From Octopus sinensis (Eukaryota): a stretch of 64,000 bases of DNA. Position 1 is the first letter of the stretch. Every line of letters starts with the position of its first letter. The stretch spans positions 62,001 to 126,000 of the forward strand of contig NC_043000.1 in the NCBI RefSeq assembly GCF_006345805.1. Reading direction: 5' to 3'. The notes under the pieces were generated by a model. That model was not told the DNA's origin, ran no database searches, and saw nothing but the letters and a program-made list of their open reading frames with translations. A program made the translations under genes and the position numbers. This document shows positions 1 through 56,090 of the stretch, piece after piece.

Positions 1-276
1 TCAGTGTTATTTATTTTTTACATTAATCTTAATCTTATTTCGGCCAGAGTTCTTTCGTCACACTCCTGTGACCGCATCAGTGGTCCTTTGTTTTCTTCTT
101 TCTTATTTGTGTCTCTCCTTACTAACCGTCAAAATACAAAATGGCTGACGGTTAGTAAGGAGAGACACAAATAAGAAAGAAGAAAACAAAGGACCACTGA
201 TGCGGTCACAGGAGTGTGACGAAAGAACTCTGGCCGAAATAGGATTAAAATTAATGTAAAAAGTAAATAACACTGA
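1..276. repeat. Long inverted repeat (arms 1-131 and 146-276, 14-nt spacer) with a hammerhead-like motif in each arm; probable Penelope-type inverted pLTR
   Basis: Arms are reverse complements with few mismatches (TCAGTGTTATTT... / ...AAATAACACTGA). The left arm may continue beyond the window start. Confidence 0.9.
191..235 (+). ncRNA. Variant minimal type I hammerhead-like motif (mirror copy on the - strand at 42-86)
   Basis: GGACCA-CTGATGC-G-GTCACA ggag TGTGAC-GAAA-G aa C-TC^-TGGCC. Stem II is a perfect 6 bp. The core deviates (A9->C plus an extra G). Confidence 0.55.
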
Positions 277-23625: not shown

Positions 23626-24075
23626 GTATATATATATATATAGTTAGTTGCCCGTTTATATATATATAAAGGTTAGTTGCCCGTTTTCAGTTTCAATTTT
23701 CCTGTAACAAGCGGATTATAAGTGGATAAAACAGTGTATTTGGCTTTAGAATAACCCTCTTTAGCCCTTAATTATATGATGTATATTGCAACCGTAACGG
23801 TTTTTTTAAATATACTGCCCACGCTTCCTGATGAATTCCTTTGCTGTAGAGTAAGGGACTTCATCCTATATTGCTTAGTAGTAAACTCGATGCTTGCTAC
23901 AGGAGGACTGGTAACCATTACAATTTGTAGCGGCGAAAGGTCTGGACGTTGTTTTCTGAGGCTGACCAAAGAATTTTTATTTTTAGATATAAATGATGTA
24001 CTCAAGTGTAGTTATGTTTTTAGCTTGTGCTTTTTCCATGATCATACGTGAGTATTTTATTTATATCCCATCGAA

Positions 24076-24143
24076 ATTTCTACTGAAGAAGGAATATATC
24101 TTTTTTTATAAGATTAAGTCCGAAATTGATTCAATATAGAGAT
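24076..24143 (+). ncRNA. Type I hammerhead ribozyme, copy 1
   Basis: Stem I ATTTCTA/TAGAGAT; core CTGAAGA plus an extra A; stem II GGA..ATCTT/AAGAT..TCC; GAAA; stem III ATTGA-t-TCAAT; AUA^ site after 24136. Confidence 0.85.
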
Positions 24144-24570
24144 AACGAAATTTAAATTTTCTAAAGGTTAGTTGCCCGTTTTCAGTTTCAATTTTCCTGT
24201 AACAAGCGGATTATAAGTGGATAAAACAGTGTATTTGGCTTTAGAATAACCCTCTTTAGCCCTTAATTATATGATGTATATTGCAACCGTAACGGTTTTT
24301 TTAAATATACTGCCCACGCTTCCTGATGAATTCCTTTGCTGTAGAGTAAGGGACTTCATCCTATATTGCTTAGTAGTAAACTCGATGCTTGCTACAGGAG
24401 GACTGGTAACCATTACAATTTGTAGCGGCGAAAGGTCTGGACGTTGTTTTCTGAGGCTGACCAAAGAATTTTTATTTTTAGATATAAATGATGTACTCAA
24501 GTGTAGTTATGTTTTTAGCTTGTGCTTTTTCCATGATCATACGTGAGTATTTTATTTATATCCCATCGAA

Positions 24571-24637
24571 ATTTCTACTGAAGAAGGAATATATCTTTTT
24601 TTATAAGATTAAGTCCGAATTGATTCAATATAGAGAT
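24571..24637 (+). ncRNA. Type I hammerhead ribozyme, copy 2 (GAAA->GAA deletion)
   Basis: Reads CCGAATTGA instead of CCGAAATTGA. Confidence 0.7.
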
Positions 24638-25064
24638 AACGAAATTTAAATTTTCTAAAGGTTAGTTGCCCGTTTTCAGTTTCAATTTTCCTGTAACAAG
24701 CGGATTATAAGTGGATAAAACAGTGTATTTGGCTTTAGAATAACCCTCTTTAGCCCTTAATTATATGATGTATATTGCAACCGTAACGGTTTTTTTAAAT
24801 ATACTGCCCACGCTTCCTGATGAATTCCTTTGCTGTAGAGTAAGGGACTTCATCCTATATTGCTTAGTAGTAAACTCGATGCTTGCTACAGGAGGACTGG
24901 TAACCATTACAATTTGTAGCGGCGAAAGGTCTGGACGTTGTTTTCTGAGGCTGACCAAAGAATTTTTATTTTTAGATATAAATGATGTACTCAAGTGTAG
25001 TTATGTTTTTAGCTTGTGCTTTTTCCATGATCATACGTGAGTATTTTATTTATATCCCATCGAA

Positions 25065-25132
25065 ATTTCTACTGAAGAAGGAATATATCTTTTTTTATAA
25101 GATTAAGTCCGAAATTGATTCAATATAGAGAT
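25065..25132 (+). ncRNA. Type I hammerhead ribozyme, copy 3
   Basis: Same sequence as copy 1. Confidence 0.85.
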
Positions 25133-25559
25133 AACGAAATTTAAATTTTCTAAAGGTTAGTTGCCCGTTTTCAGTTTCAATTTTCCTGTAACAAGCGGAT
25201 TATAAGTGGATAAAACAGTGTATTTGGCTTTAGAATAACCCTCTTTAGCCCTTAATTATATGATGTATATTGCAACCGTAACGGTTTTTTTAAATATACT
25301 GCCCACGCTTCCTGATGAATTCCTTTGCTGTAGAGTAAGGGACTTCATCCTATATTGCTTAGTAGTAAACTCGATGCTTGCTACAGGAGGACTGGTAACC
25401 ATTACAATTTGTAGCGGCGAAAGGTCTGGACGTTGTTTTCTGAGGCTGACCAAAGAATTTTTATTTTTAGATATAAATGATGTACTCAAGTGTAGTTATG
25501 TTTTTAGCTTGTGCTTTTTCCATGATCATACGTGAGTATTTTATTTATATCCCATCGAA

Positions 25560-41696: not shown

Positions 41697-41768
41697 GCGT
41701 CGGTGGTGTAACGGTTAGCACGGTTGCCTTCCAAGCAGTCGGTCCGTGTTCGACTCCCGGCCGACGCA
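41697..41768 (+). tRNA. tRNA-Gly(TCC), 72 nt
   Basis: Acceptor GCGTCGG/CCGACGC; D-arm GTGT/GCAC; anticodon loop CTTCCAA (TCC 41730-41732); T-loop TTCGACT; one T.C mismatch in the T stem. Confidence 0.9.
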
Positions 41769-52063: not shown

Positions 52064-53095
52064 ATCATTCCTTAGTTTTATTTCACGATTTCTTGCCAAT
52101 TGTGAAAGAAGCGGTTTCGAACCTGGATTCAATGCTCCTTCGTTGGAATTTCAACTTCAACTACAGAGTATTTTTGTTTGTATGTATGTATGTATGTATG
52201 TATGTATGTATGTATGTATGTATGTATGTATGTATGTACGTATGTATGTATATGTGCAGATTTGTATGTTGTTGTATGTATGTATTTTCATGCATATAGT
52301 TGCATATCTAGACATGCTCATATATACATAAATGGTAAACTTCAGGAAAGTTTTATAGATTTTTACGGTTCCAGTGTTGGATTTGATCTGTATACTTCGA
52401 ATTAGCTTTCTCCTTTCTAGATTTGAGAAGCCTAATTTCTCTAGTTTGGTATCTAGGCAGTATGTTACTTATCCCAGGGCCCCAATAATTACAGGTATAA
52501 ACCTGAACTTGTAATCTGGATATAGTAAATGCCGATTTCTCAATAGTTCAACATAGGTATTCTCATTTTCACTAATCTTCATCTCTATGTTAACATCCGC
52601 AGGGCAGCTAATTTCCACAACTGTGCACAGTTTCTCTTCTCTATCCCAAATCATGAAATCATGACTGTTGTGCTTACATTTCATTGAGGTCTACTCTGGG
52701 ACATTCTACTAGTACACCTTTTTATTATGAGTGGCTATAGCAAGGCGGCAATCTGGCAGAATCGTTAACACGCCGGGCGAAATACTTAGCGATATTTCCT
52801 CTGTCAAGACGTCTTGAGTTCAAATTCCGCCGGGGTCGACTTTGCCTTATATCCTTTCTGAGTCGATTAAATAAGTACCGGTTACAAACTGCGGTCGATG
52901 TTATCGACTTAATCCTTTCCCTTAAATTTGAGGCCTTCTGCTTCCAGTAGAAAGGATAAGTGGCTATGGCTTCTACAACACTGTAGGTTTCTATTTCTTT
53001 GTCTTCGGGGTTATCCTTCCGACGGATTTCATTATAGTGTGTCATAGCTACAACATCATGTCTCATTAGTACCGTGATGACATTTTCGGACGACT
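52064..53095 (-). mobile_element. Second R4/Dong-like LINE 3' fragment, interrupted by a SINE A
   Basis: MRHDVVA..YNEIRRKDNPE, KCKHNSHDFMIWDREEKLCTVVEISCPADVN..GALG. Confidence 0.85.
52742..52958 (+). mobile_element. SINE A inserted into the LINE, 12-bp TSD
   Basis: AGTGGCTATAGC at 52730-52741 and AGTGGCTATGGC at 52959-52970. Confidence 0.9.
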
Positions 53096-53643: not shown

Positions 53644-53681
<38 letters not shown>

Positions 53682-53773
53682 TAAATAAATAAAACATATG
53701 CATATATACATACATATATGTACGTACCTACCTCTACATGTATATATACATGCATATATGGGTACATATATCA

Positions 53774-54300
53774 ATTAGAAATAAACCACGTTTTATCAAT
53801 TCAAAATGAAAAATTAAATTAATCATCTAGAAAAGTACATATAATAGAAATATTAAATATAAGATAAAAAATAATATACCGATGATTAAGTAATGTGCAA
53901 AATAAGATTATTTACGTATATAAATAAATTAATTAATGTATTAGTGTAGTTATTTTTAACCTGATGAGTGGCTATATTTATATTGAAGTGATTTTACTAC
54001 TACAACTATTTTTACTATAATCATTTCTTAAATACAGCCACGAAACACGTGTCATTATTTTACCAAATATATACGTTTTATTTATTATTTTGCACATTAC
54101 TTAATCATCGGTATATTATTTTTTTATCTTATATTTAATATTTCTATTATATGTAATTTTCTAGATGCTGTAATTTAATTTTTCATTTTGAATTGATAAA
54201 AGGTGGTTTTTTTCTAATATTATATTTTGTGAAATTTGATTTAGTATTTCTAAATTGAATTTTTCCCTGTAAGTTTGGAACAATATTCCCTCAATTTATA
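53774..54300 (+). mobile_element. Hammerhead element flanked by a ~132-bp inverted repeat (53774-53905 / 54085-54218)
   Basis: Arms are imperfect reverse complements with the hammerhead between them; ends ATTCCCTCAATT. Confidence 0.85.
53957..54057 (+). ncRNA. Type I hammerhead ribozyme with canonical core and long stem II
   Basis: CTGATGA-GTGGCT...AGCCAC-GAAA-CACGTG-TC^ (after 54053). Stem I is weak (C.A mismatch next to the core). Confidence 0.8.
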
Positions 54301-55184
54301 TATAATTTAAGACTACATTGTTGCTATTTGAGAGGTTATTTGGTTGTTATTTCTGTTCGGTCGTGCGACCGTTGGATTGTGTTTACGTACGAATATTTAT
54401 ACCTTTGAAGTTTGTATAATGCTGTGGTTCTTATTTATCGCTGGTGTCATTCTTGAACAGCATTCTAATGACCAATGGCGTTCCAAATGTGACCATCTTG
54501 CCTTTTATTCACACACAGTGTGTATAAAGGACTGCATTATGTCACATTTTCTAAATTTTTAAAAATACATTTAAGATGTGAAAGTTTTCAGCAACTAGCT
54601 ATTATGTCTAGTATACTGAGTGACAACTAAAAGCGATTAATTAATATTGCACAAAGAAGCCTTGTTCGTACGGAGTTTATTTCGAGGGAGGTGATAATTT
54701 GAAATATACTGTAAAGTATGTTTCCATAAACACCAGCTTTAGTCATGTTATAAGTAGTAAATACAGTCGGCAAAAAAAGTGGATGCAATCTAATTAGTTT
54801 CAAGCTTTATAGACTTTCATCAGAGAAAGAAATATTGATTTCTGTTCACGAAGAGATTCGTTACAGGCGCAGCTAAACAACTCCGCTTAATTTGCGTAAC
54901 AGAAGATGCGCTTGCAATGTTGATAATGAATTCGCAGGGAGGCCTAAATTGTATGTTTTTCAAATATGCTTTGCTGGACATTAAATTCAGAATCAATAAG
55001 CAGAGATTCTTTCATATGTTCATCCCCAGGTCGTCTTTTATTGAGTTGAAAGGCCTTATCAGTTTTTGTGGACTTGTATATTATGACTTTTTCTTCAGGC
55101 GTAATATACGAAAAACTAAATATTCTGTGATATTCTTTAGGCTTGTACAGTGTGCTATGAGGTTGATTTGGTTATAACTTCCAG

Positions 55185-55343: not shown

Positions 55344-56090
55344 CAGAGGTTAGAGAAGATAATGGAAACACCTTACAATTTCAAACAAATTTATTTTAAT
55401 ATCGGGTAATGGAGGATATCGACTCCTTACTTGTTTTTTTCTAAAATGCACCATAAATATTCACTAATGTTGAAATTTGGGGACCGTGTTGACCAGATAA
55501 GCGTTCAACTTCACTAGAATCTTCCTCGTGCCATTCAGTAACAACTTTAGCTGTGTGAATTGGTGCATTATCATCCTGAAAGAATGCGTTTCCCTCTGGA
55601 AACAGCTCCGCAACCATAGGATGAATTTGATTAGATAAAATGCTTAGTCTTGACAGCGGATTTCCATGATATAGCCCCACCACCAGATCTTTATCAATTG
55701 GAAGAGGGAAGTCTGGATCAAATGCTTCTTATGGCTGTCTCTACACGTATACTCGGCCGGTGGCCGGAAATAAGGTAAAGGATGACTCGTCTGAGAAAAT
55801 AGCATTATTCCACTGCTCTGTGGACCAATTCTGTAGGTTTTTACTCCACTCTAAACGCTTTGCAACTTTTGCTTTTGAAATTAGTGGTTTTCTGATTGTA
55901 GCTCTCCCTTTGTGCACCTTCCGGCGAACACTTTTTGTGGAAACTGTGTTCTCGAGATGGTCATTAAGCTCTGCAGTAATTTTAGGAGCTGTACTTTTGT
56001 GATCCTTTCTAATAATTCACGTAGGAGTCCGACAGTCCCTATCTGAAAGTTTTGGTTTTCTTCCGGAATTTTGTCCCTCTTTCTCAAACT
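55344..56090 (-). mobile_element. Tc1-like transposon fragment (one end plus a decayed transposase)
   Basis: FSDESSF, FFQDDNAPIHTAKVVTEW; TA|CAGAGG terminus. Confidence 0.8.

Follow-up and report, generated by a model that had tools for sequence, protein, structure and literature searches.

The window, by which we mean the whole stretch of 64,000 nucleotides analysed here (G000:C4:62001-126000, from the 2.7 Gb genome of Octopus sinensis), contains at 53904..54300 (+) a forward piece of 397 bp, the 5'-truncated end of a Penelope-like element (PLE), and at 53774..53905 (-), head to head with it, an inverted arm of 132 bp. Positions in the family are counted from the predicted ribozyme cut, which falls after 54053, so that +1 is 54054; on this count the inverted arm corresponds to +32 to +165, and the forward piece runs from about -150 through the hammerhead to the long 3' end of the family (+258). 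The arm is the reverse complement of 54085-54218 with 95.5% identity over 134 columns, which confirms the statement of the initial annotation that the sequence 3' of the ribozyme is inverted upstream. The two arms meet at 53904..53905, where a 2-nt microhomology (AA) is common to both. It had also been stated that the repeat encloses the hammerhead; the 132-bp arm is real, but the arrangement is asymmetric, as the forward piece extends about 80 bp beyond the inverted region, to ~54300. This one-sided tail of ~76-80 nt (54219..54300, +) lies between the two fixed 3' ends of the family and is carried by the forward arm only, and the outer end of the inverted arm is the short 3' end of the family (an internal TA run, called +182). 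On the left, the insertion is bordered by a degenerate (TA)n/(TATG)n microsatellite (53647..53773), which is likely the insertion target and at which no TSD is discernible, and on the right it ends in a short ATT/TA run (54294..54307). A long-hairpin transcript had been anticipated, and in agreement with this the 481-nt region is predicted to fold into one long hairpin (MFE -196.1 kcal/mol versus -71.9 +/- 4.7 for shuffles, z = -26.5). The locus is a broken stub of a Penelope-type element in a back-to-back layout which is already known for PLEs.

No host exon was recognised among the 60 of 210 window ORFs that were scanned, which yielded nothing but a Tc1-type transposase fragment and low-complexity noise. 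The broken remnant of a Tc1/mariner-type transposase lies at 55444-56090 (-) (Pfam HTH_Tnp_Tc3_2, E = 9e-7). Both ARAGORN and Rfam call a tRNA-Gly(TCC) at 41697-41768 (+), which may be a gene or the head of a repeat, and across 23755-25532 equal-length ORFs return every ~495 bp (23755, 24250, 24744, 25239), pointing to a tandem repeat. At 52727-52975 (+), a repeat-like stretch of ~250 bp stands between two similar 15-nt words (ATGAGTGGCTATAGC and ATAAGTGGCTATGGC); we take it to resemble an abundant short interspersed repeat, and the word that it has in common with the hammerhead looks like chance.

The type I hammerhead occupies 53957..54057 (+) and consists of the 5' strand of stem I (TAAC, 53957-53960), the core CTGATGA (53961-53967), a stem-loop II of 74 nt (53968-54041), GAAA (54042-54045), the palindromic stem III ACACGTGT (54045-54052), the GTC of the GUC site (54051-54053) and the 3' strand of stem I (54054-54057), where A replaces the G of the family at 54054; all of these are on the forward strand. 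The stem II pairs GTGGCT/AGCCAC, TATTTA/TAAATA and GAAGTGATT/AATCATTTC are formed in the MFE fold. The hammerhead had been called canonical, and this stands for the exact core, the GAAA, stem II, the palindrome and the GUC site but not for stem I, which in the family is UAAC/GUUA and in the window copy closes with C-A. Because A at +1 breaks this closing pair, the ribozyme of the window copy is predicted to be impaired. Among 57 family hammerheads, retrieved by fuzzy core patterns, the closing pair is C-G in 40 and C-A in 11, and C-A likely results from CpG decay; G dominates at +1 in contigs of all four sequencing runs examined.

The same 57 copies have CUGANGA exactly in 51 cases, GAAA in 53 and NUH in 53. 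In an alignment of 34 closely related copies 95% of cells pair, and no pair is changed on both sides, with no compensatory change in stem II either. Rfam gave no hammerhead family among the best 150 of its 228 matches on the window, these being microsatellite-driven miRNA matches and one tRNA. The duplex of the palindromic stem III has a computed energy of -11.7 kcal/mol and would allow a dimeric ribozyme to form from two RNAs. Several variants were also recorded: CUGAAGA, which changes the free core position, is common to 8 of the 57 copies (L043, L047, L060, L070, L090, L191, L192 and L195), and the length of loop II differs between family variants with the stem kept. Two insertions in which both arms read through the ribozyme carry a predicted damaging change common to the two arms, namely L013:1738-1865 (-) with L061:3075-3199 (+), and L057 with L058 (both arms of L067), the changes being CUGAUGA to CGGAUGA and A instead of C before the core. 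Such changes suggest one source RNA with a weak ribozyme.

The window locus is one member of a family with at least 2,436 genome-wide pattern matches at +101 (a DNA search gave 2,911 candidates, of which 40 were scored). Among its copies the 3' ends are fixed and the 5' ends vary, and the longer ones extend upstream via a ~3-kb 3' UTR into an ORF; ORF, 3' UTR and hammerhead end lie in line in seven loci (L067, L091, L092, L096, L097, L098, L099). The linkage of the 3' piece to an ORF with RT and GIY-YIG bears out the earlier proposal of a Penelope-type reverse-transcription product. The ORF contains RIKWK, SDKTK and CTCRDKSTC (CxCx5C) and no CCHH, and its GIY-YIG region shows NVVY..IYIG without the cysteine pair, with CSLC (CxxC) and KCKH (CxH) present. 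Pfam matched GIY-YIG at E = 3e-4 and 21.4 bits, slightly below the cut-off of 22.6, and did not recognise the RT pieces. Homologues of the RT part number 65 at E <= 1e-10 (best 5e-72) and are mostly unnamed; one of them maps along L093, L094 and L096, and among the 34 full-length ones DKT is found in 28 and CxCx5C in 21. The named homologues come from Octopus bimaculoides and from Apostichopus japonicus (three proteins), the latter a species for which the available text of PMC8557442 describes Hydra families. The ORF copies that were read contain stops or frameshifts. One copy, L094, carries +148..+256 directly before its ORF on the same strand, as in a pLTR. Because the last ~110 nt of the sequence 3' of the predicted cut (54054..54300, +) directly precede the ORF in this near full-length copy, that sequence is likely the 5' leader of the element as well as its tail.

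According to the parts of Craig et al. 2021 (PMC8557442) available to us, the Hydra clade has GIY-YIG downstream of RT, RWK-like, DKT and CxCx5C motifs without CCHH, a canonical hammerhead near the 3' end and (TA)n targets, its families being mostly <3 kb, and an inverted 5'-truncated copy is recorded in the supplement for Penelope-13_HM. The octopus family is alike in the order of RT and GIY-YIG, the motifs, the 3' hammerhead, the inverted copy and the insertion at (TA)n; a TA/ATT run is found at 101 of 110 arm 3' ends, a figure inflated by the element's own TA-rich ends. It differs in its length of ~6 kb (ORF ~2.6 kb, 3' UTR ~3 kb), beyond the <~3 kb that is typical of the clade though not strict, in its 3' UTR with a ~890-bp repeat and in an Asn-rich linker. 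Compared by the listed hammerhead row with Hydra-1_Obim, one octopus Hydra family in the same supplement, the hammerhead is also different, with a 74-nt stem-loop II here. Judged from its sequence, the family is an EN+ Penelope-like element, probably of the Hydra clade and a candidate new member of it. The repeat of ~890 bp is tandem (L061:266-2868; L067:2867-5268), and such a 3' UTR is long by the standard of Hydra-type elements. Remnants of three other Hydra-like ORFs stand within a few kb of family copies, at L063:3596-4817 (+), L067:8846-10000 (-) and L100:8623-9792 (+), and from their sequence look like different families. A non-LTR retrozyme was considered and rejected, since the family is ORF-linked and the mapped loci contain no tandem hammerhead units.

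For the family statistics we used an unbiased sample, the first 100 of 2,436 matches of the +101 pattern, which is blind to hammerhead and inversion and covers chromosome C1 only. We removed 8 loci that overlapped or were duplicates and a double row for L188, and in L123, L182 and L188 the 3' end was chained across an interruption. A head-to-head partner lies within 300 bp in 37 of 81 insertions, and 44 have no close inverted partner; the count of inversions among genomic members that the initial annotation asked for thus shows inversion to be common in the family, and an inverted copy with a one-sided tail is the known PLE layout. The 3' ends of the arms fall at ~+182, the internal TA run (54 of 98), or at ~+258 (43 of 98). 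As many as 33 of the 37 pairs consist of one +182 arm and one +258 arm, the other 4 having an unclassified end, so that no pair is of the same type; random arm pairing would yield about half mixed pairs. The window copy obeys this rule, and single copies ending at +182 are common. Of the 33 mixed pairs, 20 have the +182 arm extending further 5' and 12 the +258 arm, and one is a tie, with ends that are coarse to ~15 nt; in the clear cases (L039, L126, L166, L170, L181) the +182 arm outreaches its partner by 50-240 nt. The arm that carries the ORF terminates near +178 in L067 and L103, and the inverted arm near +258. Since the +182 arm outreaches in 20 of 33 pairs and bears the ORF in these two loci, each arm was, on this sequence evidence, likely primed on RNA. 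Arm-to-arm identity exceeds the best of 181 other genomic copies in only 4 of 37 pairs; this gives no indication of the hairpin being maintained, and it is likely a by-product.

The window copy alone is uninformative on cutting, since its inverted arm stops at +32, and the 5' ends of the family were counted in the same +101 sample (3 of 101 arms dropped as segmental duplicates, L185-L187). The stricter end-mapping was used, as the looser one over-extends into AT-rich flanks. Ends per arm at risk are few far from the cut (7/98 at +81..101, 10/91 at +61..80, 5/81 at +41..60), rise to 18/76 at +21..40 and 39/58 at +1..20, and fall upstream of it to 2/19 at -19..0, 1/17 at -39..-20, 2/16 at -59..-40 and 0/14 at -60..-99. 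The step at the cut, 39/58 versus 2/19, has a Fisher p = 1.5e-5. Most ends lie at +8..+30 rather than at +1, and those in the AT-rich stretch are uncertain by ~10 nt, with TA microhomology shaping the ends. As a side observation, L184-L187 (G000:C1, 159.67-160.29 Mb), four long copies that are nearly identical and have their breakpoints in common, likely represent a segmental duplication.

At base level, a pattern for copies reaching +5 gave 1,025 matches (reversed control 19), 485 of which also match through -3. Of the first 100 of the 1,025, on chromosomes C1 and C2, the 45 failing the longer pattern and 27 of the 55 matching it were read, 2 spurious matches and 1 duplicate (L243) were dropped, and start classes were assigned by eye. 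The starts were 16 at G+1, 4 at +2 and 9 at +3..+5, with 68 passing, the +2/+3 calls being blurred by TA flanks; among the 84 copies that extend to +1, 16 have that very base as their first, and 4 of the 40 passing copies examined end in -1..-24. The ending rate is accordingly ~0.19 at +1 versus 0.004 per base just upstream. Genome-wide, TATA is joined to G+1 without the preceding C at 24 places, in many contigs and in three sequence variants, and TATA-joined starts at 0 to -6 amount to 8 places in total. We suggest that the pile-up at +1 likely records run-off of reverse transcription at the ribozyme-cut RNA end, in the animal and before genomic copying.

A pattern across the hammerhead has 259 exact matches genome-wide, and the core is intact in most copies that read through. 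We considered and rejected template jumps that leave a scar at the cut: all 88 of 88 hammerhead halves, a set that is partly pattern-selected, continue cleanly into +1, and L181 and L257 were the two irregular junctions seen. To judge from these junction sequences, clean read-through is more in keeping with RNA that was uncut or re-ligated than with imprecise jumping between templates. A pattern of GUC followed by a TA run had a single match, an internal deletion, and thus gave no sign of a 5' cleavage product primed at its end. Two copies look like restarts at the RNA 5' end, as in L174 +1..+12 is repeated ahead of a second start at +1, and L172 starts at +1 and then skips from ~+16 to +60.

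As the main competing reading, the spike at +1 could also be produced by transcription that starts at the cut site from an internal promoter, in which case ribozyme cutting would be unnecessary. A TATA-like run, TAAATATA, is found 24-17 nt upstream, and the site reads C|G, with TC|G fitting the loose pyrimidine-purine rule of transcription starts. However, measured against the usual spacing between TATA and start, the run is ~6 nt too close to +1, and copying of a cap should add an extra G, which is seen ahead of only 2 of the 16 exact starts and 1 of 24 genome-wide TATA-G+1 places. Since this reading also requires a chance match to the single predicted scissile base, we regard it as unlikely, although promoter-like motifs are described for pLTRs of other PLEs in the available text of PMC3846280. 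Stalling of reverse transcriptase at the folded hammerhead would make ends accumulate immediately 3' of it with no cut needed, and the bulk of ends at +8..+30, near the 3' foot of stem I, together with the long and stable stem II, would agree with that. It is less consistent with the data, ends being rare at the foot of strong stem II: the strongest helix begins at ~-12, yet few ends fall in 0..-24, the single-base spike sits within a weak 4-bp helix, and none of the 37 close pairs of the unbiased sample join at the ACACGTGT palindrome. We therefore consider stalling very improbable indeed.

For the inverted arm, the initial annotation had proposed snap-back, in which the first cDNA folds on itself and is copied, and self-priming on an antisense template has been proposed for PLEs in the sections of PMC3846280 available to us. 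The window copy alone is compatible with it, as its geometry permits; paired inner ends are closer than shuffled ones (median difference 14.5 versus 35, p = 0.0009), though the rank correlation is nil (Spearman 0.004), and private variants are common to both arms of L067 and of L013/L061. These last two observations could be explained by one source RNA or by joining at palindromic microhomologies. Snap-back gives only a nested second arm, so the +258 arm should always reach further 5', but in 20 of 33 mixed pairs it is the +182 arm that extends further; the ORF is on the +182 arm in L067 and L103, single +182-ended copies are common, and an antisense template leaves the spike at a sense-strand cut unexplained. 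As the mechanism of the family, snap-back is thus very unlikely. The least probable reading, close to negligible in our opinion, is a MITE with TIRs or a hairpin kept for its own function as a small RNA or editing substrate. The strong predicted hairpin would suit it, but the family is linked to an RT ORF and the arms are no more alike than other copies. The MITE alternative, which the initial annotation had named as the contrary case, fails on its own terms: the arms vary at their inner ends and differ from each other at their outer ones, a close partner is missing in 44 of 81 insertions, and TA runs form the flanks.

From the arrangement of sequences, we consider it probable that two separately primed cDNAs make the insertion, with the 5' pile-up coming from ribozyme-cut sense RNA by RT run-off. 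The element's protein would nick both strands of a TA microsatellite, the TA flanks of which are observed. Priming on the sense RNA would follow, at ~+258 for one strand and at ~+182 for its opposite, the two ends and their pairing being what is seen in the genome. On a cut RNA, cDNA synthesis would run off at +1 and the product would often be trimmed by 5-30 nt, giving the observed distribution of ends; on uncut or re-ligated RNA, it would pass through the ribozyme into the 3' UTR and the ORF, as the clean read-through copies do. Finally, the two cDNA ends, or a cDNA and the target, would be joined by some repair route that leaves the short microhomologies and templated inserts present at junctions. 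In the window, the forward arm would have been read through to ~-150 and the inverted arm would have stopped at +32.

The published systems are compared here within the parts of the papers available to us. PLE insertions with an inverted pLTR (PMC3846280; PMC8557442) have a head-to-head 5'-truncated copy and a tail on one arm, as here, and the tail is ~76-80 nt in this family versus 30-40 in those described. Set against the antisense self-priming of PMC3846280, this family favours a sense template, and its short/long pairing has been counted (33/37). For Poseidon of Anolis (PAc; Frangieh et al. 2024, PMC11167929), two-strand target cleavage and extension was reported in vitro on an AT-rich target, with two internal RT start sites that define the tail and the hammerhead upstream of them; this family is like PAc in having two 3' ends or RT starts and paired arms that fit two-strand extension. 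In PAc, hammerhead cleavage is dispensable in vitro and no reads are reported to begin at the cut in the available text, whereas genomic 5' ends of this family spike at the predicted cut.

The nearest precedent for a cut mirrored in insertion ends is R2 (Eickbush et al. 2013, PMC3774820), where, as far as the accessible portion describes it, the cut of an HDV-like ribozyme determines where the RNA starts at its 5' end; genomic 5' junctions reflect this cut and show joining by microhomology. R2 differs in that it has another ribozyme, is a non-LTR element and has an rDNA target, and its cut defines the full-length 5' end, while the run-off proposed here would give non-coding stubs of ~180-260 bp. 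Like the minimal and dimeric hammerheads of metazoan PLEs and the retrozymes in the available parts of PMC4209133 and bioRxiv 10.64898/2026.07.22.740005, the octopus hammerhead is of type I, lies in a pLTR and has a palindromic stem III suited to a dimer, but its stem II greatly exceeds the 7-8 bp given there. Unlike the animal non-LTR retrozymes of the bioRxiv report, it forms the end of an ORF-bearing element and not a tandem non-coding unit.

What is new is where the 5' ends fall, since the layout itself is ordinary for PLEs. In the open-access papers searched we found no report of an insertion-end spike at the hammerhead cut for PLEs, and subscription papers or supplements may hold one. 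The spike is known for one family only, because inspection by eye of the sequence 3' of two other Hydra-like ORFs revealed no hammerhead. Wherever a genome is assembled, the end-spike test can be applied cheaply to any of its PLE families. Two questions are informed by the family statistics, namely the role of the hammerhead in EN+ PLEs, which is called 'still unclear' in the available part of PMC8557442, and the strand of the template RNA, sense or antisense, which is left open in that of PMC3846280. The one-base end spike and the strict short/long arm pairing point to cut sense RNA that is primed twice, and the insertion ends of this family are likely base-precise, indirect evidence that the Penelope hammerhead cuts in vivo. 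On balance, we lean towards reading the family as a germline fossil record in which the cut would give the sense RNA template its 5' end, about two thirds of the arriving cDNAs would run off as stubs, and only uncut or re-circularised RNA would give ORF copies, so that the ribozyme would throttle full-length transposition and two priming sites, one per target strand, would build the inverted layout.
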